Source of the DNA: a virus
Lineage: Duplodnaviria > Heunggongvirae > Uroviricota > Caudoviricetes
Virus record (IMG/VR): IMGVR_UViG_2778261380_000011
Span: 1 to 19,475 of that record
DNA: 19,475 nt
Direction: 5' to 3' (one strand)
This document shows, in pieces, positions 1 through 18,614 of this stretch. The translations under genes were made by a program, and so were the position numbers. Positions within the stretch are counted from its first letter, which is position 1; each line of letters opens with the position of its first letter. The notes under the pieces were generated by a model that was not told where the DNA came from, ran no database searches, and saw only the letters and a list, made by a program, of their open reading frames with translations.

Positions 1-249
1 TCAAACATCGTTAAACTGACTTACGGATATGTCTTCTTTGAGCAGCTTTTCCAGAAATGCGTTTGGAATGAACGTATATCCCTCCTCTTTTGGTAGAGAC
101 GGGAGCAACGCCCTCGCCTCAGCCTTCAGAAGCTCAGTTCTGGCAACTTTCACAAAAGAGATTTGAGTTCTTTCATCAATGGAACGAAGGAAGCGCAAAC
201 GCTTAGCTTCTTTGTGTGTATCAGGTGGATTAAAGCCTTTGTTTCGCAT
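1..249 (-). CDS. hypothetical small protein (82 aa) immediately downstream of cII
   Basis: ATG at 249-247 with GAGGT Shine-Dalgarno (rc of 256-260); stop codon is rc of window positions 1-3; the longer 185-aa version in the ORF track overlaps cII and is rejected. Confidence 0.5.
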   Translation of the reverse strand: MRNKGFNPPDTHKEAKRLRFLRSIDERTQISFVKVARTELLKAEARALLPSLPKEEGYTFIPNAFLEKLLKEDISVSQFNDV

Positions 250-326
250 ATAATTACCTCGTTGGATGTTATTAAAATTCCATTTGTATTTGTTCAGAAC
301 GCTCGGTTGCCGCCGGGCGTTTTTTA
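250..326 (+). ncRNA. oop-like antisense RNA overlapping 3' end of cII (5' boundary approximate)
   Basis: Intrinsic terminator on + strand (stem 300-306 / 313-319, loop ttgccg, T-run 320-326) antisense to cII; 3' portion resembles lambda oop RNA as I remember it. Confidence 0.4.
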
Positions 327-565
327 TTGGTGAGAATCGAAGCAACTTGTCGTGCCAATCGGGCCATATCGTCGTCAACGACGCCCCATTCAAGAACAGC
401 AAGCAGCATTGAGAACTTTGGAATCCAGTCCCTCTTCCACCTGCTGATCTGCGACTTATCAACTCCCACAGCTTCCGCTGTCTTCTCAGTTCCAAGCATT
501 GCGATTTTGTTAAGCAACGCACTCTCGATTCGTAGAGCCTCGTTGCGTTTGTTTGCACGAACCAT
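272..565 (-). CDS. cII: transcriptional activator CII (lambda-type)
   Basis: Translation from MVRANKRNEALRIESALLNKIAMLGTEKTAEAVGVDKSQISRWKRDWIPKFSMLLAVLEW... matches lambda CII from memory; ATG at 565-563 preceded by AAGGAA; ORF-track 117-aa version is an upstream extension. Confidence 0.92.
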   Translation of the reverse strand: MVRANKRNEALRIESALLNKIAMLGTEKTAEAVGVDKSQISRWKRDWIPKFSMLLAVLEWGVVDDDMARLARQVASILTNKKRPAATERSEQIQMEF

Positions 566-575
566 ATGTAAGTAT
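543..575 (+). promoter_or_regulatory. pRE-like CII-dependent promoter (TTGC-N6-TTGC at 543-556, -10 AAGTAT at 570-575)
   Basis: Exact TTGCgtttgtTTGC CII-binding repeat inside the cII 5' coding region, directed toward cI, as in lambda pRE. Confidence 0.6.
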
Positions 576-644
576 TTCCTTAGATAACAATTGATTGAAT
601 GTATGCAAATAAATGCATACACCATAGGTGTGGTTTAATTTGAT

Positions 645-675
645 GCCCTTTTTCAGGGCTGGGATGTGTAAGAGC
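645..675 (-). promoter_or_regulatory. nutR N-utilisation site (boxB 645-659, boxA 668-675) between cro and cII
   Basis: Minus-strand reading agctcttacacatcccagccctgaaaaagggc closely matches lambda nutR boxA/boxB; palindromic hairpin 601-620 (gtatgca-aataaa-tgcatac) lies at the tR1 position. Confidence 0.7.
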
Positions 676-684
676 TGGAATGTC

Positions 685-900
685 TTAAGCGGCTTTGTGT
701 TCCGGCGGGAACACGTCATCAAGACTGACTTTTGCGCCTAACTTGTTTAGGCACTCAACAAGAGCACGGCATGTTTTAAGGTCTGGGAAGCGACGACCAG
801 ATTCCCAATGTCCGATAGCTCCCTGTGTGCATCCAACTGCCTTAGCAAGTGTTGTTTGAGAGATATTCAGTGACTCTCGATATTTTCGTAGGTTGCTCAT
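685..900 (-). CDS. cro: Cro-like HTH repressor (non-lambda specificity)
   Basis: 71-aa product MSNLRKYRESLNISQTTLAKAVGCTQGAIGHWESGRRFPD... with helix-turn-helix similar to the CI N-terminus; ATG at 900-898 preceded by GGAGG; divergent from cI. Confidence 0.8.
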   Translation of the reverse strand: MSNLRKYRESLNISQTTLAKAVGCTQGAIGHWESGRRFPDLKTCRALVECLNKLGAKVSLDDVFPPEHKAA

Positions 901-926
901 ATGCCCTCCATAGTAACCATGAAACA

Positions 927-955
927 ATAATACGATATGTACTTTTAGAATGCAA
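927..955 (-). promoter_or_regulatory. pR-like promoter (-35 TTGCAT rc of 950-955, 17-nt spacer, -10 TATTAT rc of 927-932) overlapping operator site
   Basis: Near-consensus sigma70 hexamers read on minus strand 25-50 nt upstream of cro ATG; spacer contains operator-like AGTACATATCGTATT. Confidence 0.65.
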
Positions 956-1002
956 ACAAAAAATACATCTTGTGCATGGATGGTTTTAGTACAGAGCGTA
1001 AT
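929..1002. promoter_or_regulatory. oR operator region with at least two 15-bp sites (929-943 and 988-1002), consensus AGTACA-N3-CGTA-YT
   Basis: Same 15-bp pattern recurs at oL (1809-1823); sites overlap pR and the region just upstream of the cI start. Confidence 0.55.
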
Positions 1003-1011
1003 AATAAGGGT

Positions 1012-1671
1012 ATGAAAATGAAATGGTATGAACTGGCTAGATCCAGAATGAAAGAGCTCGGCATAACTCAAGAGAAGTTAGCTGAAGAGCTTGGTATGAC
1101 GCAGGGTGGAATTGGTCACTGGTTGCGCGGATCTCGTCATCCATCTCTTGACGAGATTGGTGTGGTGTTTAAATACCTTGGTATTGATAACGTCTCATTC
1201 AACCACGACGGTACATTTTCACCTGTTGGCGAATACTCATCTGCCCCCGTTAAAAAACAATATGAGTACCCTGTTTTTTCTCATGTTCAGGCCGGGATGT
1301 TCTCGCCTGAGCTTAGAACCTTTACCAAAGGTGATGCGGAGAGATGGGTCAGCACAACCAAAAAAGCCAGTGATTGTGCGTTTTGGCTTGAAGTTGAAGG
1401 TAATTCCATGACCGCGCCAACAGGATCCAAGCCAAGCTTTCCTGACGGGATGTTAATTCTCGTTGACCCTGAGCAGGCTGTTGAGCCAGGTGATTTCTGC
1501 ATAGCCAGACTTGGTGGTGACGAGTTTACCTTCAAGAAACTGATCAGGGATAGCGGTCAGGTGTTCCTACAGCCACTAAACCCGCAATATCCAATGATTC
1601 CATGCAATGATAGCTGTTCCGTAGTAGGGAAAGTTATCGCCAGCCAGTGGCCTGAAGAGACATTTAGTTAA
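1012..1671 (+). CDS. cI: CI-type repressor: heterologous N-terminal HTH domain fused to lambda-like LexA/S24 autocleavage C-terminal domain
   Basis: C-terminal two-thirds ([19 protein letters not shown]...[53 protein letters not shown]...) matches lambda CI from memory incl. Ser (GNSM) and Lys (FKKL); N-terminus [37 protein letters not shown] is not lambda; ATG at 1012 (ORF track starts upstream at TTG 970). Confidence 0.9.
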
Positions 1672-1703
1672 CAGCCTCACCACTCTAAAACACACAACAA
1701 TAA

Positions 1704-1733
1704 CCCGACCTTAGCGTCGGGTTTTCTTTTTCC
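1704..1733 (+). terminator. intrinsic terminator after cI
   Basis: Stem cccgac (1704-1709) / gtcggg (1716-1721) followed by ttttcttttt. Confidence 0.7.
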
Positions 1734-1796
1734 AAAATATAAACCCATTAAATACAAAGCGTTATAAAAAACTAATTATATTTAGAACATTTTGTA

Positions 1797-1825
1797 TTGA
1801 CTTGATAAAGTACAAATCGTACTAT
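1797..1825 (+). promoter_or_regulatory. pL-like promoter (-35 TTGACT 1797-1802, 17-nt spacer, -10 TACTAT 1820-1825) with oL operator 1809-1823
   Basis: Near-consensus hexamers; downstream leader catcagcaggacgcact... matches lambda pL transcript start region from memory; operator AGTACAAATCGTACT in spacer. Confidence 0.65.
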
Positions 1826-1865
1826 TTAGCCATCAGCAGGACGCACTAACCACCATGAAGGTGGG

Positions 1866-1895
1866 GCTCTTAAAAATTAAGCCCTGAAGAAGGGC
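1866..1895 (+). promoter_or_regulatory. nutL (boxA gctctta 1866-1872, boxB gccctgaagaagggc 1881-1895)
   Basis: boxB hairpin sequence identical to lambda nutL boxB as remembered; located in N leader. Confidence 0.75.
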
Positions 1896-2052
1896 AGCAT
1901 TCAAAGCAGAAGGCTTTGGTGTGTGTGATACGAAACGAAGCATTGGCCGGAAGTGCGAATCCGGATTAGCTGCCAATGTGCCATTGCGAGGTGTTTTCGT
2001 TCAGGACTACGACTCCCACACACAACCAAAGCTAACTGACAGGAGAATCCAG

Positions 2053-2379
2053 ATGGATGCACAAACACGCCGCCGCGAACGTCGCGCAGAGAAACAGGCT
2101 CAATGGAAAGCAGCAAATCCCCTGTTGGTTGGGGTAAGCGCAAAACCAGTTAACCGCCCTATTCTCTCGCTGAATCGCAAACCGAAATCACGAGTAGAAA
2201 GCGCACTGAATCCGATAGACCTTACGGTGCTGGCTGAATACCACGAACAGATTGAAAGCAACCTGCAGCGTATTGAGCGCAAGAATCAGCGCACATGGTA
2301 CAGCAAGCCACGCAGTGAAATGGGTGTGACTTGTGTTGGTCGCCAGAAAATGAAATTAGGCAGCAAACCACTTATTTGA
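2053..2379 (+). CDS. N: antitermination protein N (lambda-type)
   Basis: MDAQTRRRERRAEKQAQWKAANPLLVGVSAKPVNRPILSLNRKPKSRVESALNPIDLTVLAEY... matches lambda N (arginine-rich motif) from memory; AGGAG at 2041-2045; ORF-track start 1921 is an upstream extension. Confidence 0.92.
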   Translation: MDAQTRRRERRAEKQAQWKAANPLLVGVSAKPVNRPILSLNRKPKSRVESALNPIDLTVLAEYHEQIESNLQRIERKNQRTWYSKPRSEMGVTCVGRQKMKLGSKPLI

Positions 2380-2387
2380 GGTGAGAT

Positions 2388-2711
2388 ATGGAAGCATTAG
2401 TAGTAGAGCGAAGCGAGGATGGCTACTGGACGCACCCAGAATACGCCAACCTGTTTGGGGATAGAGAGGTAATTTCAGCTGATGAGTTCAGATCTTTCTG
2501 CAAGCAGCATGGCATTGAATCATCAATTGTTGAAATGGAAAACGACAACAATCAAACGGTAATTGACGCGTATTTTGAAGATGGGAATCAAAACATCAGT
2601 GGATGGGAGCCAAGCATGCCAGATGGAGAAGGATGGTTTGTCGGTTCGATTCACGATACAGAAGACGGTCCGATCTGCGTTTGGTTCAGGAATGTAGATA
2701 AGGCCGAATAG
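2388..2711 (+). CDS. hypothetical acidic protein (107 aa) in the ral/sieB position
   Basis: ORF with GAGGTG SD upstream of ATG 2388; no family recognised. Confidence 0.65.
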   Translation: MEALVVERSEDGYWTHPEYANLFGDREVISADEFRSFCKQHGIESSIVEMENDNNQTVIDAYFEDGNQNISGWEPSMPDGEGWFVGSIHDTEDGPICVWFRNVDKAE

Positions 2712-2727
2712 TCGGCCTTTATTTTTG
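2701..2727 (+). terminator. intrinsic terminator (stop codon inside loop)
   Basis: aggccga (2701-2707) / tcggcct (2712-2718) stem followed by ttatttttgg. Confidence 0.6.
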
Positions 2728-2748
2728 GCATAAACAACAGAGGCTAAC

Positions 2749-3045
2749 ATGGAATTTAAAGGTACTGAAGGTAAGTGGGAAATAATGATGGATGGCGATG
2801 AGATTAAAATCATCCAGGCAGACTCTCTTGAAAATGGCACAGGCTGGCGTTCGTATATTGCAATCTGTGAGGAAGTTCAATGCATTGAAGATGCCAATCT
2901 AATAGTGGCTGCACCTGACCTTCTCGAAGCGCTTCAGTTATTACTTAAGCAAACCAAAAATAGAACAACGACAACATATCCAGAATGGTATGGAGCTGTT
3001 AATAAAGGTCTCGCAGCAATAAGAAAAGCTCTTGGGGATAAGTAA
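2749..3045 (+). CDS. hypothetical protein (98 aa)
   Basis: ORF with AGAGG SD; no family recognised. Confidence 0.65.
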   Translation: MEFKGTEGKWEIMMDGDEIKIIQADSLENGTGWRSYIAICEEVQCIEDANLIVAAPDLLEALQLLLKQTKNRTTTTYPEWYGAVNKGLAAIRKALGDK

Positions 3046-3233
3046 TGAAAGTAAAAATAACCGCTTCTAATACCAGTTTTGTTAGTGTTGGTGATATTAC
3101 AGAAGTAATAACAAACCATGATGGAACACAAGTTATGTGGTCTGATTTTTGTAAAAGATATGAGCGAGTCACTTGGTGTAAACTCGTATGGGGCGTCGAA
3201 TACGAAGAATTACCTGAAATGCATGACGAATAA
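3045..3233 (+). CDS. hypothetical protein (62 aa), start overlaps preceding stop (TAATG)
   Basis: Translational coupling geometry; no family recognised. Confidence 0.55.
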   Translation: MKVKITASNTSFVSVGDITEVITNHDGTQVMWSDFCKRYERVTWCKLVWGVEYEELPEMHDE

Positions 3234-3328
3234 GCACTGTGTATTCATTCCAACGAGTGAATACACGGAGCAATGTCGCTCGTAACTAAACAGGAGCCGA
3301 CTTGTTCTGATTATTGGAAATCTTCTTT

Positions 3329-3353
3329 GCCCTCCAGTGTGAGGGCCTTTTTA
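3329..3353 (+). terminator. intrinsic terminator upstream of cIII (read through under N antitermination)
   Basis: gccctc (3329-3334) / gagggc (3341-3346) stem followed by cttttta; a second hairpin at about 3240-3267. Confidence 0.6.
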
Positions 3354-3418
3354 TATGCATACCAATAACGCTTCACTTGAGGCGTTTTCGTTATGCAATC
3401 AAACAGAAGGAGCATCCT

Positions 3419-3589
3419 ATGCAACAGTTCGCTATTGCAGGGGCGGCATCGGTTCGCCCTTTCAACCCGATTTTATCGGTACAGCATTCACGAAAAAATA
3501 TTTTAACCGGAGCAGACTTTAAACAACCAAGAATGAAAAGCTTGCTCGAAAAGCTTTGGGATATTTTGAAACAACAAGGCCGTCCATGA
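3419..3589 (+). CDS. cIII: CIII-like protein (56 aa)
   Basis: MQQFAIAG...LLEKLWDILKQQGRP resembles lambda CIII (MQYAIAG...LIDILNQPG) from memory; AGGAG 8 nt upstream of ATG 3419; ORF-track start 3314 is an extension. Confidence 0.7.
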   Translation: MQQFAIAGAASVRPFNPILSVQHSRKNILTGADFKQPRMKSLLEKLWDILKQQGRP

Positions 3590-3693
3590 GTTTTACAGAT
3601 AACTGGTCAGACGAAGAATTCATTCGTCTGATGAACAAAATGCTCAATCAGCACAAAGAACAGGAGAAAGATGATGATTCTGACTCTGAATGA
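3586..3693 (+). CDS. possible small acidic protein (35 aa) in the kil position
   Basis: ATG overlaps cIII stop (ATGA at 3586-3589); not in ORF track (short); overlaps start of next gene in another frame. Confidence 0.3.
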   Translation: MSFTDNWSDEEFIRLMNKMLNQHKEQEKDDDSDSE

Positions 3694-3982
3694 TAAGCGT
3701 GAAATATCGCAAATAATCGCAAGTTTTACTGATGAAGATTACGAACGAATCAACAGTGAAGTTAATCGCCTCTGCAAACGTTGCGACCCAATAAGCGAAA
3801 TGCTTCGCTCATATAAACCAGATGAACACACTAAGGACGCTATCGACTGGCTGGAAGATTATGACTGTAACTATCAGGAAAAAGCCGCTGAATGGTTCTG
3901 GGATGCAATAACCGAAAGAGTTAAGGCTGAATATGCCTTCGCAATATTCAAACGCAGACATATTTATGGAGAAGCTGCATGA
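3671..3982 (+). CDS. hypothetical protein (103 aa)
   Basis: ORF with GGAG upstream; stop overlaps recT start (ATGA). Confidence 0.65.
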   Translation: MMILTLNDKREISQIIASFTDEDYERINSEVNRLCKRCDPISEMLRSYKPDEHTKDAIDWLEDYDCNYQEKAAEWFWDAITERVKAEYAFAIFKRRHIYGEAA

Positions 3983-4881
3983 GCAATATCGTTGAATTCG
4001 TTAAACAGCAAGAGCAGTTATTCTGCGGAGCATTGACTGAACAGACGGTGACATGGGCTAAGGAAAGCCAGTTTGCAATTCAGTATTTCCAGAAAAATGA
4101 TTACCTGGCTAAAACGGCACTGGCAAATCCAACCAGCGCACAGAACGCCATCATCAATGTTGCGGCGATCGGCATCACCTTAAACCCGGCCAGCAAACTT
4201 GCTTATCTAGTTCCGCGCGACGGCATGGTTTGCCTTGATATCAGCTATATGGGATTACTTCACCTTGCACAGTCGACAGGATCAATTAAGTGGGGGCAAT
4301 GCAAACTGGTGTACTCAAACGACACCTATGAATCAAACGGCCTTGATTCAGCACCAACCCACAAATACAACGCATTTGGTGAGCGAGGCTCTATTGTTGG
4401 TGGTTATTGTACGGTTAAAACAGCAGATGGTGACTACCTCACTGAAGAAATGAGTCTGGCAGAAATTAAAGCAGTGGAAGCAACGAGCAAGGCAAAGAAT
4501 GGACCGTGGAAAACATTCTGGGAAGAGATGGCACGTAAAACAATAGTTAAACGCGCCAGCAAATACTGGCCTAAAGCCCAGCGACTGGATAATGCCATTC
4601 ACCTGCTTAACGAAGATGAAGGTATGCATCAGGAACCAGTTATGCCGCACAAATCAGAGGAAGATATCCGCGAAGATGAACGGAAACGCCAGCAGGAAAT
4701 AATGGAAAAAGCACAACTTCTTTGTGATGAAATGGCTCAGGCAGAAAACATGGATGATTTGAAGCGATATTTTGCAGAAGCATATCGCCTGACATCTGGA
4801 ATGAAATTGCAGCAGAACGTACAAGCCATTTACATAGAATGCAAAGCGAAACTGGAGGTTGCCAGTGAGCAAACTATATGA
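3979..4881 (+). CDS. recT: RecT-family single-strand annealing recombinase
   Basis: Motif NGPWKTFWEEMARKTIVKRASKYWP resembles RecT NGPWVTHWEEMAKKTAIRRLFKYLP (from memory); 300 aa; coupled to flanking genes. Confidence 0.88.
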   Translation: MSNIVEFVKQQEQLFCGALTEQTVTWAKESQFAIQYFQKNDYLAKTALANPTSAQNAIINVAAIGITLNPASKLAYLVPRDGMVCLDISYMGLLHLAQSTGSIKWGQCKLVYSNDTYESNGLDSAPTHKYNAFGERGSIVGGYCTVKTADGDYLTEEMSLAEIKAVEATSKAKNGPWKTFWEEMARKTIVKRASKYWPKAQRLDNAIHLLNEDEGMHQEPVMPHKSEEDIREDERKRQQEIMEKAQLLCDEMAQAENMDDLKRYFAEAYRLTSGMKLQQNVQAIYIECKAKLEVASEQTI

Positions 4882-5347
4882 AATAGCCAATGAATACGCA
4901 AAATTGATGGATTCAGATTTAGAGCCAGAGATGATTGCTGACACAATAGAAGGCATGGAAGGAGAATTTACCGATAAAATAGAGCAACTTCTTGCCATTA
5001 TTAAAAATGAATCTGGTTATGCTGAACGCCTCAAGGACGAGGCAAAATCACTGAATGAACGAGCCGCAGTAATTCAAAATAAGATTGACAGCATTATGGC
5101 GTATATAGCGTCATCGCTTGAAATGGTTGGCAAGAAAAAGATTCGAGCGGGTATTCACCAGGTAACAATCCGCAAACCGTCAGAAACTGTAGAAATCATC
5201 GACTCAAGCGCCCTTCCTCCTGAATACGTTGAGTTTGAAACGACAATTAAAGCCGACAAACTGGCAATCAAACACCAACTAAAAGCAGGAATAAATATCC
5301 CCGGCGCTCAACTCAAAGTTGGGAAACCTTCACTTCTTATCAAATAA
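4865..5347 (+). CDS. hypothetical coiled-coil protein (about 160 aa) in RecT-partner position, possibly Siphovirus Gp157-like
   Basis: GTG 4865 preceded by GGAGG (4854-4858), overlaps recT stop; family assignment is tentative. Confidence 0.55.
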   Translation: MSKLYEIANEYAKLMDSDLEPEMIADTIEGMEGEFTDKIEQLLAIIKNESGYAERLKDEAKSLNERAAVIQNKIDSIMAYIASSLEMVGKKKIRAGIHQVTIRKPSETVEIIDSSALPPEYVEFETTIKADKLAIKHQLKAGINIPGAQLKVGKPSLLIK

Positions 5348-5358
5348 CGGTATCGCCT

Positions 5359-5673
5359 ATGAAAAAGACTCCATGGGAGAAATGGGAAGTCGATTTCTTA
5401 CGCGAAGTAGCGGCGACAATGCCAGTTGAAGTTATCGCAGAAAAACTGGAAAGGACTGAAAAAGCAGTAATGGCGAAAGCAACAAGGATTGGCGCTGACA
5501 TTGTTAGCCGACTTCGTGGAAGACGCTGGACAAGAGCCGAAGTATCACTTTTCGGTAAGTTCTCCGCAGAAGAAATAGCAATTGCAACCTGCCGCTCAAT
5601 TTATTCAGTAAGAGCTATGCGATACAAGCTAAAAAAACTCGATGAAGAAAGAGCAGGCATACGAATAAATTAA
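5359..5673 (+). CDS. hypothetical protein (104 aa)
   Basis: ORF in operon context; weak SD. Confidence 0.55.
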
Positions 5674-5689
5674 CAAAGAGGAATTTACC

Positions 5690-5854
5690 ATGAGAGGACT
5701 TGCATACAATCCCGGCATTCTTCCGGCAGAAATGATTATTCGCCAACGCGTAAAGCCAATGCCATCGAGAGAGGAATTGCTTAAGAGAAATTCTTTTCCA
5801 TCAGTGAATCAAAACAAATATCTGAATGCGATGTGGAGGAGTGGGAAGAAATGA
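5690..5854 (+). CDS. hypothetical small protein (54 aa)
   Basis: ATG 5690 preceded by AAGAGGA; stop overlaps next start (ATGA at 5851-5854); not in ORF track. Confidence 0.45.
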
Positions 5855-6360
5855 AACAAATGTCACTAATTGAGATGGATGGATTTCTGAAAGGTAAATG
5901 CATCCCACGAGATTTAAAGGTTAACGAAACAAACGCTGAATATCTTGTCCGTAAGTTCGGTGAACTTGAATCAAAACTGGAAACGGCGTTGCGGGAGTGT
6001 CGTTCTGCTGGAATCACGATTGATAACCTTGAGGCCAAGTGCGCGGCGCTGGCAGCGGAGAGTGTGGGGATGAAGAAGTTCTGCAAAGACGCTGCATTCG
6101 ATGCCGATTACGAAGCAGAGCTAGGTATGGAGCGTGGTGGATTCAGTGATGCGCTTAACGAAATCAAAACCCCAGCCACCGATGCTTTCCTGTCTGAAGT
6201 GCGGGCGCAGGGCGTGGAGATGCTGGCAAAAAATCATCAGAGTATCGTCAATGCACTTAAGGGAGATTCTTTATTTTCTGATGGTGAATACCTGCATGCA
6301 GCTATTGTTTCCGCAGCTGTATATTTCGCTGCAGAGCTTCGCAAAGGAGGCAACCAGTGA
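5851..6360 (+). CDS. hypothetical protein (169 aa)
   Basis: ATG 5851 with GGAGG upstream; ORF-track start 5833 is a GTG extension. Confidence 0.65.
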
Positions 6361-6611
6361 GTAATTCAGCACGACTACAGCTTGGTTTTTCACCGCTATC
6401 AAAAACTATCATGCTGGCAAAAATGCGCTATGTTGAAGGTGGACGTATGCGCGTTGGCAATGATCCAGGTCGTGATGTTACCAATGAGGCTGCTCAATTG
6501 GTGTGGCGACTGGTCATGGCTGAAGGTGGTGAGATCGCGTGGGAGCTGGATGATGGTTCTCGCATGGTGTTGAAGGCAGAAAAGCAGGAGGCAACCAGTG
6601 AGCAAGATTGA
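6357..6611 (+). CDS. hypothetical protein (84 aa) bounded by identical 17-mers
   Basis: GTG 6357 overlapping preceding stop, preceded by AGGAGG; ends within second copy of aggaggcaaccagtgag. Confidence 0.45.
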   Translation: MSNSARLQLGFSPLSKTIMLAKMRYVEGGRMRVGNDPGRDVTNEAAQLVWRLVMAEGGEIAWELDDGSRMVLKAEKQEATSEQD

Positions 6612-7584
6612 TTATCAGGCACTGCGTGCTAAGGCAGAAAAAGCAACGTGTGGCGAGTGGTCGCTCGAATATGGAGAGAGCCGATTTGATGGTGATGATG
6701 CGCTAATTCATCGTGAAGTTGCTGGATATATTCCCATTTGCAGAATTGAAGGAGCGCATCCAGAAAGCGGTTTCGATGAAGATTTCCAAATGGAACAGCA
6801 GGCCAATGCTGAATTCATCGCCGCAGCCAATCCGGCTACCGTACTGGCGCTGCTGGATGAACGGGAAAGAAACCAGCAATACATCAAACGCCGTGACCAG
6901 GAGAACGAGGAAATTGCGCTTACGGTAGGGAAGCTGCTAATCGAAAACGGCCGGCTTGTTGCCGATACGCTACGCCACTTAGCTGATAACGAAATCGACT
7001 CTGATTATTTTGCTATCACCTCAACTAATGAGAACGGTACTGAAATTGATCATGAGATGTCTATTACCGATTACGCACTGCAAGCTGCCGGAACTGTAGA
7101 CGAATTGGTTGCGGCGCTGGAAGCCGCAAAATCAAAACTCAACGAGCAGCGTGAATATTACGAGGGAGTAATCGCGGATGGGAGTAAGCGTATTGCTGAA
7201 CTGGAGAAAAGCGAAGAGCAACTCATCAATGAGCGTGACCATGCTGAGTCTGCTTTAGCTGATATGTACTTTGCAGCAACCGGTAACAGGCCGGAGTGGA
7301 GCAACTGGTTCGGCTTTTCAGATGCTGTCGATGCCGTGGTTGACAGAATAGCTGATTTAGAAGCCAAACAGCCATCGCCGGTAGTGCCGGATAATGCATC
7401 AGAGTCGCTTGCTTATGCTTACAAAGAGCTTACGCCTGAGATTATGCGCGGTCATATCGCTGTATTCGAGCGATATGGAATAGCCCCAAACGATAGCATT
7501 ACCACAATTCAGGCACTGCGAATCGCGCTGGATGGTATAGAGCGGAGCGACGCCATGCTTCAGGGAGGTAATAATGACCAATAA
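6598..7584 (+). CDS. Ead/Ea22-like family protein
   Basis: GTG 6598 after AGGAGG; N-terminus MSKIDYQALRAKAEKATCGEW resembles Ea22-like prophage proteins (from memory). Confidence 0.7.
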   Translation: MSKIDYQALRAKAEKATCGEWSLEYGESRFDGDDALIHREVAGYIPICRIEGAHPESGFDEDFQMEQQANAEFIAAANPATVLALLDERERNQQYIKRRDQENEEIALTVGKLLIENGRLVADTLRHLADNEIDSDYFAITSTNENGTEIDHEMSITDYALQAAGTVDELVAALEAAKSKLNEQREYYEGVIADGSKRIAELEKSEEQLINERDHAESALADMYFAATGNRPEWSNWFGFSDAVDAVVDRIADLEAKQPSPVVPDNASESLAYAYKELTPEIMRGHIAVFERYGIAPNDSITTIQALRIALDGIERSDAMLQGGNNDQ

Positions 7585-8188
7585 CAACCTAACAGACGAG
7601 CGCCTGAGCGTACTTATCCGTGTGGCTAGGGATTCTCTTGAATTGTATGAAATGGAGTTGCCTGTCATTGATGATGTAATGCTAGCGCTGGCCGAACTTC
7701 AGCAACGCCGCGCCGCCATGCTTCAGGGAGGCCAACCTGTAAACCAAACTTACAACTTGCCAGAATTAATCGAAGGCATGGAGGTTTCCATTGATGTAAG
7801 CACTTGTGATGCTGATTTAGGTAATCGCTATTTCGGCACCGTCACCGAGGCGTCAGAACTTGATACTGCCAAGAATGGTTACATCCTCCTGGTTCAGGAC
7901 GCAGAGCCAAACTTCGATGTAAATGGCAACTATCCGGTAACTCCGGATGGTTGGATAAGCTGTAGTGAGCGAATGCCAGAAATGGGAGAGCGACAATGCT
8001 ATGTGTTAGCAGCTGACTTTAAAAACAACTACCCACCAAACATCCCCAACACTCAGGTCGGCGTATATGGCGACTGGTTTAATGATGGCAATCCCACTTG
8101 GGATGACGGTGATGGCGAAGACCTGTATCTCAAAGAGGTAACCCACTGGATGCCTCTACCAGAACCGCCTCGATTAAAGGAGCTATAA
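7574..8188 (+). CDS. DUF551 domain protein with ea22-like N-terminal remnant
   Basis: C-terminal motif VTHWMPLPEPP typical of DUF551; N-terminal about 50 aa resemble an Ea22 C-terminal tail and end at a repeated 17-mer. Confidence 0.75.
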   Translation: MTNNNLTDERLSVLIRVARDSLELYEMELPVIDDVMLALAELQQRRAAMLQGGQPVNQTYNLPELIEGMEVSIDVSTCDADLGNRYFGTVTEASELDTAKNGYILLVQDAEPNFDVNGNYPVTPDGWISCSERMPEMGERQCYVLAADFKNNYPPNIPNTQVGVYGDWFNDGNPTWDDGDGEDLYLKEVTHWMPLPEPPRLKEL

Positions 8189-8302
8189 TAGTGAACTATT
8201 ATATCTATTTGTATTAAAAGAGTTTTTATAAAATAAATCTTCCAAAGCATGTAAAAACACTGTTAATCTTAACGTGTGTGAAACGTGAAGAGAGGTGTTG
8301 AA

Positions 8303-8584
8303 ATGAGCATTCATGGTTTGTGTGAAGATCAAGAGCAATGGGCTATGCAGACCCTTATGGGATCAGGAGTTCTTGCAAGGTGCAGAATCCATAACGATGT
8401 AATTTTAGACAGCGGAAATGATGCTTCTTCTGCTTATAAATTAGGAACTTACCTATATCAAAAAGATAATAGCTGCAACTTATTCAATACTCTTACTGAA
8501 GCCCGCGACGCAATAAAGGATGCATATGAATCGTATTGTGGGATTGATGATTGCCCACAATGCTCAAAATACATTGACGATTAA
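8303..8584 (+). CDS. hypothetical Cys-containing protein (93 aa)
   Basis: ATG 8303 with GAGGTG SD; AT-rich upstream region; followed by tandem hairpins 8605-8660. Confidence 0.55.
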   Translation: MSIHGLCEDQEQWAMQTLMGSGVLARCRIHNDVILDSGNDASSAYKLGTYLYQKDNSCNLFNTLTEARDAIKDAYESYCGIDDCPQCSKYIDD

Positions 8585-8672
8585 TAATATGAACAAGTAA
8601 CTATCCTCGCACTCGCGGGGATTTCTTTTATCTGAACTCGCTACGGCGGGTTTTGTTTTATGGAGATGATAA

Positions 8673-8840
8673 ATGCACTTCCGAGTCACAGGTGAATGGA
8701 ATGGAGAGCCATTCAACAGAGTTATCGAAGCAGAAAACATCAATGACTGCTATGACCACTGGATGCTATGGGCGCAGATAGCACATGCAGACGTAACCAA
8801 TATTCGAATTGAAGAACTGAAAGAACACCAAGCCGCCTGA
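8673..8840 (+). CDS. hypothetical small protein (55 aa)
   Basis: ATG 8673 preceded by GGAG; not in ORF track; followed by terminator. Confidence 0.45.
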   Translation: MHFRVTGEWNGEPFNRVIEAENINDCYDHWMLWAQIAHADVTNIRIEELKEHQAA

Positions 8841-8853
8841 TGGCGGTTTTTTA
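8832..8853 (+). terminator. intrinsic terminator
   Basis: ccgcc (8833-8837) / ggcgg (8842-8846) stem followed by tttttta. Confidence 0.6.
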
Positions 8854-8897
8854 TTACCTGATTTGCAGGTTCGATTCCCTATTCGGAGATAGCACTC

Positions 8898-9098
8898 ATG
8901 CAACACGAACTACAGCCTGATTCACTGGTTGATTTGAAATTCATCATGGCCGATACTGGCTTCGGTAAAACCTTCATCTATGACCGGATTAAGTCCGGCG
9001 ACCTGCCAAAAGCCAAAGTTATCCACGGGCGAGCAAGATGGTTATATCGTGACCATTGTGAATTCAAAAATAAGCTCTTAAGCCGCGCCAATGGGTAA
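8898..9098 (+). CDS. alpA: AlpA-family transcriptional regulator / excisionase-like protein
   Basis: 66 aa; LKFIMADTGFGKTFIYDRIKSGDLPKAKVIHGRARWLYRD fits AlpA/Xis winged-helix pattern (from memory); 250 bp upstream of integrase on the same strand. Confidence 0.8.
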   Translation: MQHELQPDSLVDLKFIMADTGFGKTFIYDRIKSGDLPKAKVIHGRARWLYRDHCEFKNKLLSRANG

Positions 9099-9346
9099 AA
9101 TAGCGGGTAAAATATTTCTCACATCTAAAAAATACCATTCCAATCAATCCCCTGCCGCTTCAAGTAGATGTCTGCAGGGGACACCATGAACACTTCTCAC
9201 TAAGTTCAATTAATTCCATAACTCACTGTTTTAACTGATATCATCTCCTTATACTCGTCCAGCAAAGTACCATTATTTCTAATGGAATCTATACATCTTT
9301 GCGTATAACATTGTGTATAACTGAGTTCGATCTTTTTTCTATACAC

Positions 9347-10522
9347 ATGCTGCTATCTGACATCCAAATAAAAAGAGCAAAACCGAAGGACAAACCCTAT
9401 ACGCTTAACGATGGTATGGGGCTATCACTCCTGATCGACACAGCGGGCAGTAAAGGCTGGCGTTTTCGCTATCGCTTTGCAGGTAAGCCTAAGATGATTT
9501 CCTTTGGCGTATATGGCGATGTGTCGTTGGCACAGGCACGTACCAAACGTGATGAAGCGCGTTCGATGTTAGCCAACGGGATAAACCCAAGTGAAGCCAG
9601 AAAAGCAGATAAGATTGCTTTGCAGTTCGCGCATGAGAACAGCTTTGAGTCTGTGGCCAGAGAATGGCACTCATCGAAAAAAGCCACCTGGTCAGAGGGT
9701 TATGCAAAAGAGGTTCTCAATTGTATGGAAAAGGATATTTTTCCTTTTATCGGCCAGCGCCCAATTGAGCAGATTGAACCATTAGAACTGCTAACCGTCC
9801 TGCAAAAAATAGAGAAAAGAGGTGCGCTAGAGCAAACCAGTAAGATCCGCCGCCGCTGTGGTGAAGTGCTTCGTTATGCTGTTGCCACTGGTAGAGCAAA
9901 GTATAATTTTGCACCCGATTTAGCTATCGCACTCAACAAACCTAAAACCCAACACTTCCCGTTCCTGACTGAAAGCGAGTTGCCCGAGTTCGTTAATGCT
10001 CTGGATAACTATCAGGGCAGTTTAGTTACCAAATACGCCACGCAGCTGTTGATGCTAACAGGCGTGCGAACAATTGAACTACGTGCAGCGGAATGGGCTG
10101 AGTTTGATTTAGATAATGCCTTATGGGAGATCCCCAAAGAACGGATGAAGAAACGCCGCCCCCATCTGGTTCCGTTATCAACTCAGGCGATCAATATCCT
10201 GAAAAAGCTGCAAGAAATAACAGGGAATTACAGCCTCGTTTTCCCTGGCCGGAATGACGTCAGTAAACCAATGAGCGAAGCCAGCATCAACAAAGTGATA
10301 AAACTACTGGGTTATCACGGTCGGTTAACGGGTCACGGTTTCAGGCATACCATGAGCACCATCTTGCATGAGCATGGGTTTGAAAGTGCCTGGATTGAAA
10401 TGCAGCTTGCGCATGTTGATAAGAACTCTATTCGAGGTACTTACAATCATGCGCAATATATTAAAGATCGACAAGTAATGATGGAATGGTACGCTAGCTT
10501 ATTAAATACGACCTGCTATTAA
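9347..10522 (+). CDS. int: tyrosine recombinase, P4-type integrase
   Basis: N-terminus MLLSDIQIKRAKPKDKPYTLNDGMGLSLLIDTAGSKGWRFRYRF typical of P4-family arm-binding domain; C-terminal HGFRHT (HxxR) and catalytic Tyr region RGTYNHAQY; ORF-track start 9299 is an extension. Confidence 0.92.
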   Translation: MLLSDIQIKRAKPKDKPYTLNDGMGLSLLIDTAGSKGWRFRYRFAGKPKMISFGVYGDVSLAQARTKRDEARSMLANGINPSEARKADKIALQFAHENSFESVAREWHSSKKATWSEGYAKEVLNCMEKDIFPFIGQRPIEQIEPLELLTVLQKIEKRGALEQTSKIRRRCGEVLRYAVATGRAKYNFAPDLAIALNKPKTQHFPFLTESELPEFVNALDNYQGSLVTKYATQLLMLTGVRTIELRAAEWAEFDLDNALWEIPKERMKKRRPHLVPLSTQAINILKKLQEITGNYSLVFPGRNDVSKPMSEASINKVIKLLGYHGRLTGHGFRHTMSTILHEHGFESAWIEMQLAHVDKNSIRGTYNHAQYIKDRQVMMEWYASLLNTTCY

Positions 10523-11452
10523 ATCCAGCATGAAACAAATATGGTGAGTAATTTGATACTGTTTGTTTTTTGGCAACCCAGGGAAATGCCTTACAGTTGG
10601 TTGACTATTGTAATAATAATAGTTAAGACCAATGTTGCTGCCAAACTGGGTTGGATGTTGGGGAACAAGATTTGTAATTTGATCTGAAACATCTAAAAAT
10701 TTTGCAGTAACATTTGAACTTCCTCGTTGCGTGTTGCTTGATACAAAATGACGAATCCAAACTGTATTCGCTTGTAAATTCTTGAACACCAAATGTGCGG
10801 CAACAGCAGAAGGTTGACCACCTCCAAGATCTAGTACCTGGCCAGTAATTGTATAATCGCCAAATCCTAAGTAATTTTGTCCCACGAATTGATGTGCGTG
10901 CGTGAAAAGTTCCGGCCCATTATAATCAGCATTTTTTGCTAACTTTCTAAAGTTATCGCTAATAATAATTAACTTCGACAAAGGAAGAAGAGCGCACTGA
11001 TTAGGAAGCATTTTATTATTTAAAACAACATGATAACTAATCAATTGATTTGTCGCCAACAACTGAATATCAGAGTTGGATAATGATGGATTATCATATA
11101 GAAGTGCAACTCGTCTATTTAAGTTAGCATTCAACCAATTATTAATATCATTAATCGTTGTATTGGGCTGAATAAGATATCCAGAGATGATATTATTTTT
11201 ATTTGTTAATACACTTGATAAATTTTGATTTAAAGTTAAGACGTTATTGTGTGAAGAAAAATCTTCCTGATAAGGATTAAGGATAACAATTATGTCAGAA
11301 TTCCAAACATTTAAACATGTTAATAAATTTCTCGTATTGACGTTAATTGGTTCTAAAATTGGTAGCAGACCATTTAGGCTAACTCCCTTCGCAACGAGGT
11401 CCCTAAGGCATAATAACTCTGTACTTCTCGCATACAAATATGGGCTATACAT
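10502..11452 (-). CDS. hypothetical protein (316 aa), second gene of AT-rich cargo operon
   Basis: ATG 11452 preceded by AGGAG; 21-nt gap after upstream gene; no recognisable domain; 3' end overlaps integrase 3' end by 21 nt (convergent). Confidence 0.8.
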   Translation of the reverse strand: MYSPYLYARSTELLCLRDLVAKGVSLNGLLPILEPINVNTRNLLTCLNVWNSDIIVILNPYQEDFSSHNNVLTLNQNLSSVLTNKNNIISGYLIQPNTTINDINNWLNANLNRRVALLYDNPSLSNSDIQLLATNQLISYHVVLNNKMLPNQCALLPLSKLIIISDNFRKLAKNADYNGPELFTHAHQFVGQNYLGFGDYTITGQVLDLGGGQPSAVAAHLVFKNLQANTVWIRHFVSSNTQRGSSNVTAKFLDVSDQITNLVPQHPTQFGSNIGLNYYYYNSQPTVRHFPGLPKNKQYQITHHICFMLDLIAGRI

Positions 11453-11473
11453 AACTTACAACTCCTGAGGATA

Positions 11474-12355
11474 TCAACAAATTTTAATTTTTACATCCAT
11501 CAAATTCATGATGAATTCTTTTTGCTTTCTTGATAATGGTGTTGCATAACCTAAAACACGTAAACATGCTGGAAGAGAATAAATATAATCCAAAAAAACT
11601 TTATCGTTACATCTTTTTTTCATAGCAGAGATAAAGTATTTATTTGCTATGTTTAATGGCATCTGCATGAATATCTCTTTACAATATTCATAAACCAATC
11701 CGTTAGGCATATTTATTTTAGTTGAAGTGTAATCTTCTATTATAGCTAAGAACTCTTCCTTTCTAAGAACTGAAAACAAGCTGTCACTTTTAATATAATC
11801 AATATTTGAATCTGCCTCCTTAATGACACTCAATTGATCTTTTTTATTCAAAACCATAACTCCCACTCTGGGGAGATTTAAAGCACAATATTTACTTGCA
11901 TACTCTGGATGTGTAACTATATACACTTTATCAAAAACATCCAAATAATCAGGGGCTTGAGTAATCAACCTTTTTGGTGAATCATACTCTGTCTTAATCT
12001 CGTAAGCTGTAGACGTACCATTAAACACCGCAACATCCACTATAGAGTTTTTAATTGGTAACTCTATGGACGACGAACTTGTTTTTGGGCTGTGCTTACC
12101 GAATATTATTTTATTGACAAGTGCTGTCTTATAAACATATTCATTTCTATAATTCAGACGCAAAAAATCATATAATGATGTAAATAAATCCCTTAGTGAA
12201 ATCTCATGTTCATTATTATCATTGTTTGAAAACAGTGTTTCATAGCAGTAAGAATCAAAACTCCCAAATAAATCCGAAATATCCTTACCTTTTGCTAAGG
12301 ATGAAAAAATGGGGCGACGGAAAAATTTAGCATATTCCTTTTTATTATGACTCAT
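11474..12355 (-). CDS. hypothetical protein (293 aa) with PD-(D/E)xK nuclease-like motif, first gene of AT-rich cargo operon
   Basis: Motif SIVD(107)VAVF-x9-YE(119)IK(121) (nt 11993-12037); strongly AT-rich coding sequence. Confidence 0.8.
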   Translation of the reverse strand: MSHNKKEYAKFFRRPIFSSLAKGKDISDLFGSFDSYCYETLFSNNDNNEHEISLRDLFTSLYDFLRLNYRNEYVYKTALVNKIIFGKHSPKTSSSSIELPIKNSIVDVAVFNGTSTAYEIKTEYDSPKRLITQAPDYLDVFDKVYIVTHPEYASKYCALNLPRVGVMVLNKKDQLSVIKEADSNIDYIKSDSLFSVLRKEEFLAIIEDYTSTKINMPNGLVYEYCKEIFMQMPLNIANKYFISAMKKRCNDKVFLDYIYSLPACLRVLGYATPLSRKQKEFIMNLMDVKIKIC

Positions 12356-13034
12356 TACTCATACTCTATAAACATCATGCAATTTGATAAGTTATGACGA
12401 ATTCTCACCATCCAGTTACTACCTGTACATACTAATCAAAAAAAACGAGTACGCAAGATACGAAAGTACTTTTCTTGTTCACCAGTTAGCTTACCTTGAT
12501 CCTCACCAGCGACTGGAAGATAGGTAGCAGTATATGTGGAAACCTTCCCCTAGCTAGGTCTACAAACGTAGTTTGGGCATTTAGGCTCCACGATTCACGG
12601 TTTGACACGGCCTGATATCTGCACATTCGTTTTGATATGCAGCAATCGTGAAAAAGGAAAATATACGCTCGACAGACCAAAACGGCACTACACCGCACCC
12701 GCCTGCGGTTTTCATATCACTAAAAATTTTCAGCCTGGATTTTTTACAAACGATACCGCCAGTCCGTGCCAGTCCTCGAGATGTACTGCGATACAGGAAC
12801 TGAAAAGAATGAAAAGAAATTCATTTTTTTTCAGTTTTACTGTCCGTCGAATCTATGGCCTGAATACGCAACTCTATGATATTAAATGGATAATTAATTT
12901 TAGGTGTGTGATTTTATGAAGGTTTGTGAAACATGAAGAAGATAACCAGTTGAAAAATAATAATTTTATGACCGTATAAACTGAAATCCTGTGTTCAGGT
13001 TCCGGGAACAGATCGGCCATTCCCGACGCATACT

Positions 13035-13307
13035 TTACCCATTCTTTTGCGCAGCCAGCAGCAACTTTAAAGCCTTTTCCCGTTCCTCGGGTGGAATTGC
13101 ATCAATCAGCTCTTTAACCCTTCCCTGCCCGTTCAGCGCGCTTGGACTAACGGAATGGGAGAAAGCAACATTCATCACAAACGAGTGACCGCACTCCACA
13201 TTAGAGCAATAGCAGTACACATCGTACAGTTGTGGGTGTTTCCTGTTTGTTTTACCTATCCGTGCTACTGCCTGACATGTGGGGCAGTACATTCTCATCA
13301 TCTTCAT
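13035..13307 (-). CDS. Ogr/Delta-family zinc-finger transcriptional activator
   Basis: MYCPTCQ...YCYCSNVECGH Cys4 pattern as in P2 Ogr / P4 Delta; exact start among several N-terminal Met codons uncertain. Confidence 0.75.
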   Translation of the reverse strand: MKMMRMYCPTCQAVARIGKTNRKHPQLYDVYCYCSNVECGHSFVMNVAFSHSVSPSALNGQGRVKELIDAIPPEEREKALKLLLAAQKNG

Positions 13308-13373
13308 CGTTCTGTGCCCTATACTGTTGCCCGCCAGAAGAAGGGATTTGGATCCCTACCTCTTGTTCTGAAC

Positions 13374-13563
13374 GTGTAACACTGGTAACACGTGTAACGC
13401 TATTGATTTAAAAGGATTTAATCTGTTACCAGTTAGCAAAATCAAGAGGTAACGCGTGGTAACACACCATTTTTTGTTACCTCTGTTACCAGTCAGTATT
13501 TTTGACTGGTAACACTGAAGAACCGCATCAGTAACGGGTGTTACCTCTGTTACCAGTGTTACC
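13374..13563. repeat. iteron array: about 13 copies of TGTTACC / GGTAACA heptamer in both orientations, mostly phased at 9 bp; putative replication origin
   Basis: Copies at 13374-13399 (three tandem 9-mers), 13424-13430, 13448-13464, 13475-13490, 13508-13514, 13531-13563; located immediately downstream of primase gene. Confidence 0.75.
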
Positions 13564-13589
13564 TCATAAAAATAAGACTCACGCGATAA

Positions 13590-16277: not shown

Positions 16278-16684
16278 AGCAGCACCTCCTGACCTTCCGG
16301 CTTCACAAATTCAAAACCTTCGGGTAGTTCGCCATCAGGTGCTCCGAAAATAATATCCCGGTAAACCTCACGCATCTCTGTGACACCAAAAACTGACAGG
16401 CGAATATTTTCTGACATAAAGCCTGGTTTAAGCATTTTTTCCAGTTTCTCTGCGGCCAGTATGCAACCAGCATCAGCCCCAAACTCATTCACCCACGGCA
16501 TTTCAATATGGTAAATAATATTACTCACCACTTTTTCGTGGGAGAGTTCTATTCGTTCGCCATCTTCAATATAAACAGGTTCATTATGAACACGCACCAT
16601 TAAGGAAATGAATGCATCAGCAATGTAGTAGCGTAAGACTGCTGTTCGTAAAGCATGCGCCTTTAAATTTTGATTATTATTCAT
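16274..16684 (-). CDS. hypothetical protein (136 aa), coupled upstream of primase
   Basis: ATG 16684 preceded by AGGGAG; stop overlaps primase start. Confidence 0.7.
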   Translation of the reverse strand: MNNNQNLKAHALRTAVLRYYIADAFISLMVRVHNEPVYIEDGERIELSHEKVVSNIIYHIEMPWVNEFGADAGCILAAEKLEKMLKPGFMSENIRLSVFGVTEMREVYRDIIFGAPDGELPEGFEFVKPEGQEVLL

Positions 16685-16913
16685 CGCGCATCACTCCCTT
16701 AATTGTGCTGGTTTCCTTAACAACGCCATCCAGTTGTTCGGCAATACAGGCCACTAAAGCCGCAGCGCCTTCCGCTGAAACAGTTCTCGCTCCATTCACT
16801 GTGGGCACGGACAAGACCTCTGCAAGAAACTCACTGGCCAGTGCCGCCCGTAACAGACGACTCTCCCCCTGTTCACTCAATATGCAGCCTTGCTTAAAAT
16901 TCATGGATTTCAT
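16677..16913 (-). CDS. hypothetical protein (78 aa)
   Basis: ATG 16913 preceded by GGAGGTG; overlaps neighbours at both ends. Confidence 0.6.
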   Translation of the reverse strand: MKSMNFKQGCILSEQGESRLLRAALASEFLAEVLSVPTVNGARTVSAEGAAALVACIAEQLDGVVKETSTIKGVMRDE

Positions 16914-17113
16914 GCAACCACCTCCCCGGCTCTTTTCACAGGGATACGGGCAGCAAAGCTCAGGATAAATTCAGTGGCAAGTTTAAGGCGTGCAGCATGC
17001 TCGCATTCTGCGATTACACGCACAGGGCGTGGACGGGCATCACGGTCTGTACGGCGGACAGCCAGAAAGACAAAGGTAAATTCAGGGTGAGATAAAGCAG
17101 GGACTGTAGCCAT
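16910..17113 (-). CDS. hypothetical protein (67 aa), first gene of replication operon
   Basis: ATG 17113 preceded by AAGGAGG (rc of 17121-17127); ORF-track 196-aa version is an unsupported upstream extension across the leader. Confidence 0.6.
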   Translation of the reverse strand: MATVPALSHPEFTFVFLAVRRTDRDARPRPVRVIAECEHAARLKLATEFILSFAARIPVKRAGEVVA

Positions 17114-17123
17114 AATGGCAACC

Positions 17124-17390: not shown

Positions 17391-17419
17391 CCGGCTGCCG
17401 ATTTTGCGGCAACCTTTAA

Positions 17420-17449
17420 ACTATATCCCGCGCATTCCTGGTGAGGCAA
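17420..17449 (-). promoter_or_regulatory. sigma70-like promoter for the leader/replication operon (-35 TTGCCT rc of 17444-17449, 18-nt spacer, -10 TATAGT rc of 17420-17425)
   Basis: Hexamers read on minus strand upstream of the repeated leader element. Confidence 0.5.
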
Positions 17450-17552
17450 GAAATTTATAACCGAAAACTGATCATTGCCTGGATTAATTAACGCTGGCAT
17501 GCTTAAGCCTCTGCTTAAAAATAGTTCTTCATTTTTCCTGATGCTGTAAACG

Positions 17553-17580: not shown

Positions 17581-17587
17581 CGCTAAG

Positions 17588-18592: not shown

Positions 18593-18614
18593 AGTTTTTC
18601 ACCTTTTTAAGTAT

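Follow-up and report, generated by a model that had tools for sequence, protein, structure and literature searches.

The immunity region of a lambdoid prophage occupies positions 272-2379 of a 19,475-nt window of Caudoviricetes DNA (IMG/VR record IMGVR_UViG_2778261380_000011, positions 1 to 19,475; the window is this whole stretch). The + strand of the window corresponds to the lambda leftward (PL) direction, and the region carries the genes cII, cro, cI and N, the nutR and nutL sites, a rightward (OR) and a leftward (OL) operator set, and their promoters (Table 1). A mosaic map was made by blastn against lambda, the Shiga toxin (Stx) phage VT2-Sakai (Sp5) and phage Louie. We conclude with high confidence that 685-1830 is an immunity cassette of the VT2-Sakai (Sp5) type, spliced into lambda-type cII/PRE/nutR on one side and lambda-type nutL/N on the other, in a P22-like prophage of an E. 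coli-type chromosome. What is given below on identities and positions, on how selectively the operators are conserved and on prevalence was read from the sequence itself.

Table 1. Mosaic blocks, genes and sites of the immunity region, followed by the neighbouring features of the window
Feature	Position	Strand	Sequence	Description
Block: cII, PRE, nutR	276-678			lambda, 97.3% identity
Block: cro, OR, cI	685-1671			VT2-Sakai, 92.8% identity
Block: cI C-terminal domain	1261-1665			lambda (as well as VT2-Sakai), 93.6% identity
Block: terminator segment	1694-1729			lambda segment downstream of rexB, 88.9% identity
Block: OL	1734-1844			VT2-Sakai, 78% identity
Block: nutL, N	1831-2354			lambda, 93.5% identity
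Right junction	679-684			nutR boxA/cro stop codon; lambda-type to 678, Sakai-type from 685 (blastn)
Left junction	1831-1844		CATCAGCAGGACGC	14 bp common to both parents, just downstream of PL (blastn and alignment)
cII	272-565	-		96/97 aa to lambda CII; Pfam Phage_CII, E 1.7e-48
Terminator hairpin	296-323	+		antisense to cII 3' end; inside lambda-like block
PRE, CII-binding repeats	543-556	+	TTGCGTTTGTTTGC	TTGC-N6-TTGC; inside lambda-like block
nutR	645-676	-	boxA AGCTCTTA (669-676); boxB GCCCTGAAAAAGGGC (645-659)	
cro	685-900	-		VT2-Sakai type (70/71 aa); HTH_3 (all-alpha, 434/P22-like), Pfam E 1.4e-12
PR	927-956	-	-35 TTTGCA (951-956); -10 TATTAT (927-932)	18-nt spacer; consensus scan
OR1	928-944		TAATACGATATGTACTT	holds 929-943; homologous to VT2-Sakai 2745-2761 of L001; half-site matrix score 19.0
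OR2	961-977		AAATACATCTTGTGCAT	one good and one weak half-site; homologous to VT2-Sakai 2777-2793; score 14.1
PRM (predicted)	977-1005	+	-35 TGGATG (977-982), weak; -10 AATAAT (1000-1005)	read from sequence
OR3	987-1003		TAGTACAGAGCGTAATA	holds 988-1002; homologous to VT2-Sakai 2803-2819; score 15.8
cI	1018-1671	+		217 aa from ATG 1018; alternative ATG 1012
CI N-terminal domain	1018-1260	+		aa 1-81; Pfam HTH_3, E 8.3e-11
CI linker and C-terminal domain	1261-1671	+		aa 82-217; lambda-like; Pfam Peptidase_S24, E 8.7e-29
Intrinsic terminator	1702-1733	+		directly 3' of cI; hairpin and T-run
OL3	1750-1766		AAATACAAAGCGTTATA	homologous to annotated VT2-Sakai operator 4974-4990
OL2	1783-1799		TAGAACATTTTGTATTG	overlaps PL -35; homologous to annotated VT2-Sakai operator 5007-5023
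PL	1797-1825	+	-35 TTGACT; -10 TACTAT (1820-1825)	17-nt spacer; consensus scan
OL1	1808-1824		AAGTACAAATCGTACTA	holds 1809-1823; homologous to VT2-Sakai 5032-5048; score 20.4
nutL	1865-1895	+	boxA GGCTCTTA (1865-1872); boxB GCCCTGAAGAAGGGC (1881-1895)	
N	2053-2379	+		antiterminator; 98/107 to lambda N; Pfam N36, E 1.5e-26
TorI-like excisionase	8898-9098			at the end of the lambdoid early-left arm
P4-type integrase	9299-10522	+		
sce7725/sce7726 family genes	10502-12355	-		
ogr/Delta-like gene	13035-13307	-		zinc finger
Primase	13590-16277	-		DUF927/Toprim
Ash/Icd-like gene	16910-17500	-		
C4 antisense RNA	17168-17255	-		Rfam
isrK RNA	17336-17413	-		Rfam
Major capsid gene	17588-18592	-		P2 family

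CI and Cro were identical to the VT2-Sakai (Sp5) proteins at 209 of 217 and 70 of 71 residues, respectively, and the 81-residue N-terminal domain (NTD) of CI differed from its Sakai counterpart at residues 45, 46 and 59. When 543-1102 was compared by megablast with 50,697 phage records, five phages (Louie, vB_EcoP-720R6, vB_EcoP-683R2, phi458 and Dewey) covered at least 96% of it at 97.7-99.8% identity, and more than 100 further records shared the cro-OR-cI part alone at 94-95% identity, including VT2-Sakai, Stx1 converting phage, Stx2 II, Nil2, 2851, the PA series, 2B8 and ev017. In a tblastn search with the 81-residue NTD, 63 phage records with at least 95% amino acid identity formed a tight group and the next relatives among the matches listed were at ~54% (Salmonella phages g341c, SPN9CC and ST64T), and this is therefore a discrete, already catalogued immunity type. 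The VT2-Sakai-type CI has been named 'Clade I' in a survey of Stx-phage repressors, where it is the nearest clade to lambda CI at 61% overall identity (PMC8951638).

An earlier reading of the window from its letters alone (the original prediction) had proposed a distinct immunity specificity on the basis of a non-lambda CI N-terminus, Cro and operators, with three 15-mers taken as the operators. The immunity type is indeed not that of lambda, but it is not a new one either: alignment of CI and Cro with known types led to VT2-Sakai, and the VT2-Sakai record (AP000422) annotates six 17-bp 'putative operators' together with the rightward (PR), maintenance (PRM) and leftward (PL) promoters, with operators at the positions of the three 15-mers. 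The region has the near-identical CI NTD and Cro of the VT2-Sakai/Sp5 type, and all six operators correspond in sequence and position. Because Louie is 99.8% identical across 543-1102, the hybrid arrangement as well as the type is in the public record; judged by these identities, both are already known and the region is ordinary lambdoid mosaicism, a textbook case of modular immunity-cassette exchange with little that is new. Fattah et al. (2000, Genes Genet Syst 75:223) reportedly compared the immunity regions and cross-immunity of Stx phages, and theirs is the likeliest primary description of the type.

The two splice sites, next to cro and downstream of PL, are similar to the exchange points of the classical imm434 and imm21 hybrids. 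At the left junction, Sakai-type similarity extends to 1844 and lambda-type similarity starts at 1831, giving an overlap. No lambda alignment was obtained by blastn left of 276, and the closest whole phages, Louie and Dewey, belong to the P22-like Lederbergviruses (PMC12243541); the 'lambda backbone' thus amounts to two short patches within a genome of P22-like character. The chassis that had been called lambda is real to that extent, but is confined to 276-678 and 1831-2354. Likewise, the span 543-1102, described as hybrid, does contain heterologous DNA, but this begins only at 685, at the cro stop codon, and 543-684 is lambda-type. The first heterologous block runs from 685 to ~1260, and a second lies over OL (~1734-1830).

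The modules on either side are recognizable as the lambda CII/PRE and N/nut modules by CII itself, the TTGC repeats of PRE, the boxA and boxB elements and the N36 motif. As originally claimed, CII, N and the C-terminal part of CI (133 of 136 residues over 82-217) are lambda-like, and the CI NTD, Cro and operators lying between cII/PRE/nutR and nutL/N are not. The nut sites had also been described as those of lambda, which holds for both boxB elements, identical to the annotated lambda Nutr and Nutl, but not for the boxA elements, both of which differ at the first base (lambda CGCTCTTA for nutR). The hairpin at 296-323 is presumably the counterpart of the lambda oop RNA terminator. By analogy with lambda, 543-556 would function in PRE, the establishment promoter directed toward cI, and the lambda-type CII/PRE, N and nut sites would act around the cassette whatever its specificity.

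The 15-bp pattern AGTACANNNCGTAYT of the original prediction was found without mismatch at 929-943 (- strand, AGTACATATCGTATT) and 1809-1823 (+ strand, AGTACAAATCGTACT). The third site, 988-1002 (+ strand, AGTACAGAGCGTAAT), is present with one mismatch, its final bases being AT rather than YT. With up to one mismatch allowed, the window has four matches against 0.09 expected from shuffles. The three 15-mers lie within OR1, OL1 and OR3, respectively in the order 929-943, 1809-1823 and 988-1002, but the full set comprises six operators, and the three that had been missed, OR2, OL2 and OL3, are the weaker ones. OL1 is the best and most symmetric, with dyad symmetry at 6/8 positions. The 12 half-sites gave the consensus W-A-R-T-A-C-R-N, with A5 and C6 invariant and A2 in 11 of them, and the core word ARTAC was counted eight times in OR plus OL (215 bp), where its frequency in the window as a whole would predict 1.0. 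The lambda half-site TATCACCG has T1, A2, A5 and C6 in common with those of the window; lambda operators are of the TATCACCGC type, with which WARTACRN agrees at positions 1, 2, 5 and 6 alone.

Operator layout and conservation were compared in six relatives whose fetched sequence reaches OL. The 3+3 layout was kept in all six, whatever cargo stood between cI and OL. In the OL alignment (seven sequences), 7 of 51 columns varied within the operators compared to 16 of 24 in the spacers (Fisher p = 7.7e-6), and the operator changes were mostly at central positions. Like the ARTAC enrichment, the shared layout and this conservation speak for function without recourse to the AP000422 annotation.

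The fourth match to the 15-bp pattern, at 13214-13228 (AGTACACATCGTACA, one mismatch), is outside the immunity region and inside the ogr/Delta-like open reading frame (ORF) of the neighbouring satellite. Its 17-mer score of 12.1 is below those of all six operators. It is probably a chance match, the alternative being that the helper's repressor regulates the satellite.

PR and PL were called by the consensus scan and are homologous to the 'putative major rightward promoter' and 'putative major leftward promoter' of AP000422. The predicted PRM is homologous in position to the 'putative maintenance promoter for cI' in AP000422 and AP005153. All three 15-mers had been said to overlap a promoter; this was borne out for 929-943 and 1809-1823, which overlap the -10 elements of PR and PL, and in part for 988-1002, which lies over the counterpart of the annotated PRM, where the scan made no call. 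OR1 is placed between the -35 and -10 elements of PR, and OL1 between those of PL; OL2 lies over the PL -35, OR2 abuts the predicted PRM -35, and OR3 lies on the spacer and -10 of PRM. The arrangement is that of a lambdoid switch, with divergent cI and cro around a tripartite OR and a second tripartite set over PL, upstream of nutL and N. Measured between their centres, the operators are 33 bp (OR1-OR2; 32 bp in the Sakai-type variants), 26 bp (OR2-OR3), 25 bp (OL1-OL2) and 33 bp (OL2-OL3) apart, in contrast to 24/23 bp in OR and 24/20 bp in OL of lambda.

From the hexamers, transcription from the predicted PRM would start at ~1011-1013, so that the cI mRNA would, as in lambda, have no leader or almost none. 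The start of cI itself is ambiguous. Several database records have a 696-nt cI, which would begin here at ATG 976; this codon lies on the margin of OR2 and precedes the predicted PRM -10. The start chosen in AP000422 is the counterpart of ATG 1018, which directly follows AAGGG, and ATG 1012 would suit a leaderless PRM transcript.

Several observations weigh against this account of the cassette and its six operators. Dyad symmetry was 4-5/8 at most sites and reached 6/8 only at OL1, and a scan of 901-1017 and 1672-1860 for dyad symmetry alone did not single the operators out. The sites are labelled 'putative' in GenBank (AP000422), the searchable literature yielded no published experiment on binding of the cognate CI or Cro to them, and the only electrophoretic mobility shift assay found on VT2-Sakai operators used lambda CI, not the cognate protein (PMC10742460). 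The consensus scan made no call at PRM, so that this promoter rests on annotation homology and on hexamers read from the sequence. In addition, the 33-bp spacings of OR1-OR2 and OL2-OL3, compared to 24 and 20 bp in lambda, mean that lambda-style pairwise cooperativity is not simply to be assumed.

The weak symmetry and the 'putative' status of the sites would suit the view that the 15- to 17-mers are AT-rich repeats that arose by chance or accompany promoters, and that the real operators are located elsewhere or take another form. We consider this very improbable, given the enrichment of both the pattern and the ARTAC core over chance, the 3+3 arrangement across PR/PRM and PL as in lambda, the conservation of the sites amid diverged spacers, and the fact that OL always accompanies cI and cro despite the variable cargo between them. 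The window operators are pseudo-symmetric like those of lambda, recognised via a shared half-site. In the published assay, lambda CI bound the six VT2-Sakai operators at 3.7-6.4 uM compared to 0.21-0.35 uM for its own OR1 and OL1 (PMC10742460), which is consistent with a separate specificity.

The CI protein has the architecture of a lambdoid repressor, a helix-turn-helix (HTH) NTD joined to an S24 C-terminal domain (CTD) with an Ala-Gly site and a Ser/Lys dyad; aligned with lambda, the cleavage features are QAG/M at residues 91-94 (Ala92-Gly93), Ser130 and Lys173. The NTD is only remotely similar to that of lambda: HMMER aligned it with the lambda repressor NTD (1lli) at E 7e-4 (range 7e-4 to 5e-3), residue n corresponding to lambda n+15. 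On this mapping, the window CI retains lambda Gln33 (Q18) and Gln44 (Q29) as well as the acidic residues of positive control, Glu34 (E19) and Asp38 (E23), and has Gly30 in place of Ser45. In lambda, Ser45 reads operator position 4, and its replacement matches the change of that position from C to T. The NTD of CI is paralogous to Cro (35% identity, E 4e-13), and the two have nearly the same recognition helices, TQGGIGHW in CI and TQGAIGHW in Cro, which fits two proteins competing for one operator set. Cro gave no meaningful alignment with lambda Cro. Its closest solved structure is PDB chain 28tn_A (82 aa, 'lambda repressor-like protein'; E 2.4e-16 over residues 1-69).

The binding and regulatory steps of the switch are, without exception, those that we infer by analogy with lambda. 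CI dimers would bind the six pseudo-symmetric 17-bp operators via the HTH_3 NTD, and at OR1 and OL1/OL2 would occlude PR and PL. At OR2, centred ~43 bp upstream of the predicted PRM start, CI would activate the weak PRM through the acidic patch conserved with lambda (E34/D38, here E19/E23), and occupation of OR3 over PRM would provide negative autoregulation and Cro control. The lambda-like CTD would mediate dimerisation, cooperativity and RecA-stimulated self-cleavage at Ala92-Gly93 by Ser130/Lys173 with SOS induction; since these residues are kept, such cleavage should induce the prophage. The operators are spaced asymmetrically in OR relative to OL, in a switch whose repressor has a lambda-type cooperativity domain. 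The 33/26 and 25/33 bp spacings together with that domain may, though less likely, give a pairing logic unlike that of lambda.

The hybrid repressor is a property of the whole Sakai-type cI gene and predates this phage. Recent, phage-specific recombination joining a foreign DNA-binding domain to the CI CTD of lambda itself might explain why the CTD is slightly closer in nucleotide identity to lambda (93.6%) than to Sakai (91.0%), and why, at sites where the two parents differ, the window follows lambda over 1308-1491. We give this explanation very little credence: it is contradicted by the same fusion of NTD and lambda-like CTD in VT2-Sakai, Stx1 phage, 2B8, E212 and PhiR57_1, by a Sakai CTD that is itself 93.1% identical to lambda's, and by the window CTD being Sakai-like over 1515-1644 with 15 private differences. 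A recent import of the CTD from lambda was rejected, because all Sakai-type relatives have the domain and the window copy is a patchwork. The fusion is therefore better placed as ancestral to the immunity type, followed by patchy exchange. The pattern suggests repeated exchange within a cI C-terminal segment common to immunity types.

To describe prevalence, 5426 complete E. coli genomes were covered. The cro-OR-cI(NTD) module (685-1260) was present in 776 of them, ~1 in 7, and the matching records included 115 at ≥99% identity and 566 at 90-95%. The lambda-nutR/Sakai-cro junction was present in 76 genomes and the OL/lambda-nutL junction in 132.

The existence of these two identity groups, a module that is 92.8-95% identical in nucleotides to Sakai, a G in place of A at half-site position 7 of OR1, and an OR1-OR2 spacing of 33 instead of 32 bp might together be taken to mean that the three substitutions in the NTD, with the differences in the operators, have changed recognition, making the window variant heteroimmune to VT2-Sakai/Sp5. 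This seems unlikely to us, as residues 45, 46 and 59 are outside HTH helices 2-3 (~16-37, mapped on lambda repressor), Cro differs at 1 of 71 residues, the operator differences are mostly at central or outermost positions, and both variants have R at position 7 in bona fide sites. Since the CI substitutions avoid the HTH, homoimmunity of the window phage with Sp5-type phages is likely on the sequence comparison.

This repressor specificity is also the one that governs the main Stx2a and Stx1a phages of E. coli O157:H7, so harmless prophages with the cassette may interfere with Stx-phage infection and induction. We put forward, tentatively and as something short of a firm expectation, that where the cassette resides in a non-Stx, P22-like prophage of a commensal or extra-intestinal E. 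coli, that prophage is homoimmune with the major O157:H7 Stx phages (Sp5-type, Clade I). In that case, a substantial share of E. coli would already be immune to incoming Sakai-type Stx phages and able to repress them in trans, and Stx conversion and toxin output could be affected. The residual value of the region lies in a very common, putative cognate repressor-operator pair and in the possible homoimmunity of non-Stx prophages to O157 Stx phages.

The slot between cI and OL (1672-1749) holds only the terminator in the window, with no rexAB or other cargo genes, and is likewise empty in Louie. In lambda it contains rexA and rexB. Elsewhere it contains two small ORFs (VT2-Sakai, L001 3488-4973), an 858-bp ORF (2B8 and E212), a 1047-bp ORF (phi458) or two ORFs (PhiR57_1). 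The slot looks like a moron insertion hotspot within the immunity region.

Beyond the early-left arm, a P4-like satellite (9299-19475) lies in tandem with the lambdoid prophage (Table 1). The same prophage-satellite arrangement was seen in E. coli G749, with its end adjoining dsdC. Similarity to Louie and 683R2 does not extend beyond ~9187-9200, shortly before the integrase at 9299, which differs from that of Louie and may be owned by either the lambdoid prophage or the satellite. At the Rfam gathering threshold only C4 and isrK were detected, both in the satellite and none in the immunity region, and a tRNA search of the window found none.

Compared with lambda (J02459) and the imm434 and imm21 hybrids, the window has the same gene order, cII-nutR-cro-OR-cI-OL-nutL-N, and 17-bp operators in 3+3 sets. 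It differs from lambda in lacking the N-terminal arm of CI, in the recognition helix (QGGIGHWLR versus QSGVGALFN in lambda) and in Cro, which is an HTH_3 protein unlike the lambda Cro fold. Neither the CI NTD nor Cro is thus of the imm lambda type. Among Stx-type phages, 933W and BAA2326 also have lambdoid CI/Cro switches over PR and PL, but of other immunity types. Footprinting and affinity work has been published for both repressors; Sp5 CI is 19.1% identical to 933W CI (bioRxiv 10.1101/2024.03.06.583675), and the BAA2326 repressor was rejected as a member of the same type, its operators (e.g., ATAACTGTGCGTAATG) being unrelated in layout and sequence (PMC5977221).

VT2-Sakai/Sp5 (AP000422; CI BAA94122, Cro BAA94123) has near-identical CI and Cro, the same PR/PRM/PL layout and the same lambda-like CI CTD, with six operators at homologous positions that differ by 1-2 nt each; the same immunity region is found in Stx1 converting phage AP005153, Nil2 and 2851. 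Its flanks are different, consisting of an HK022/933W-like cII (35% identical to the window CII), its own nut sites and a 933W/H-19B-like N, whereas those of the window are lambda-type cII, nutR, nutL and N, and its two ORFs between cI and OL have no counterpart here. The whole arrangement, lambda cII/nutR, Sakai cassette and lambda nutL/N, is shared with Louie (PQ850616), Dewey, vB_EcoP-720R6, vB_EcoP-683R2 and phi458, which are 98-99% identical over 272-2390 at 77-85% coverage. These five are free phage genomes whose early-left genes and integrase are unlike those of the window, and phi458 further differs by its ORF between cI and OL.

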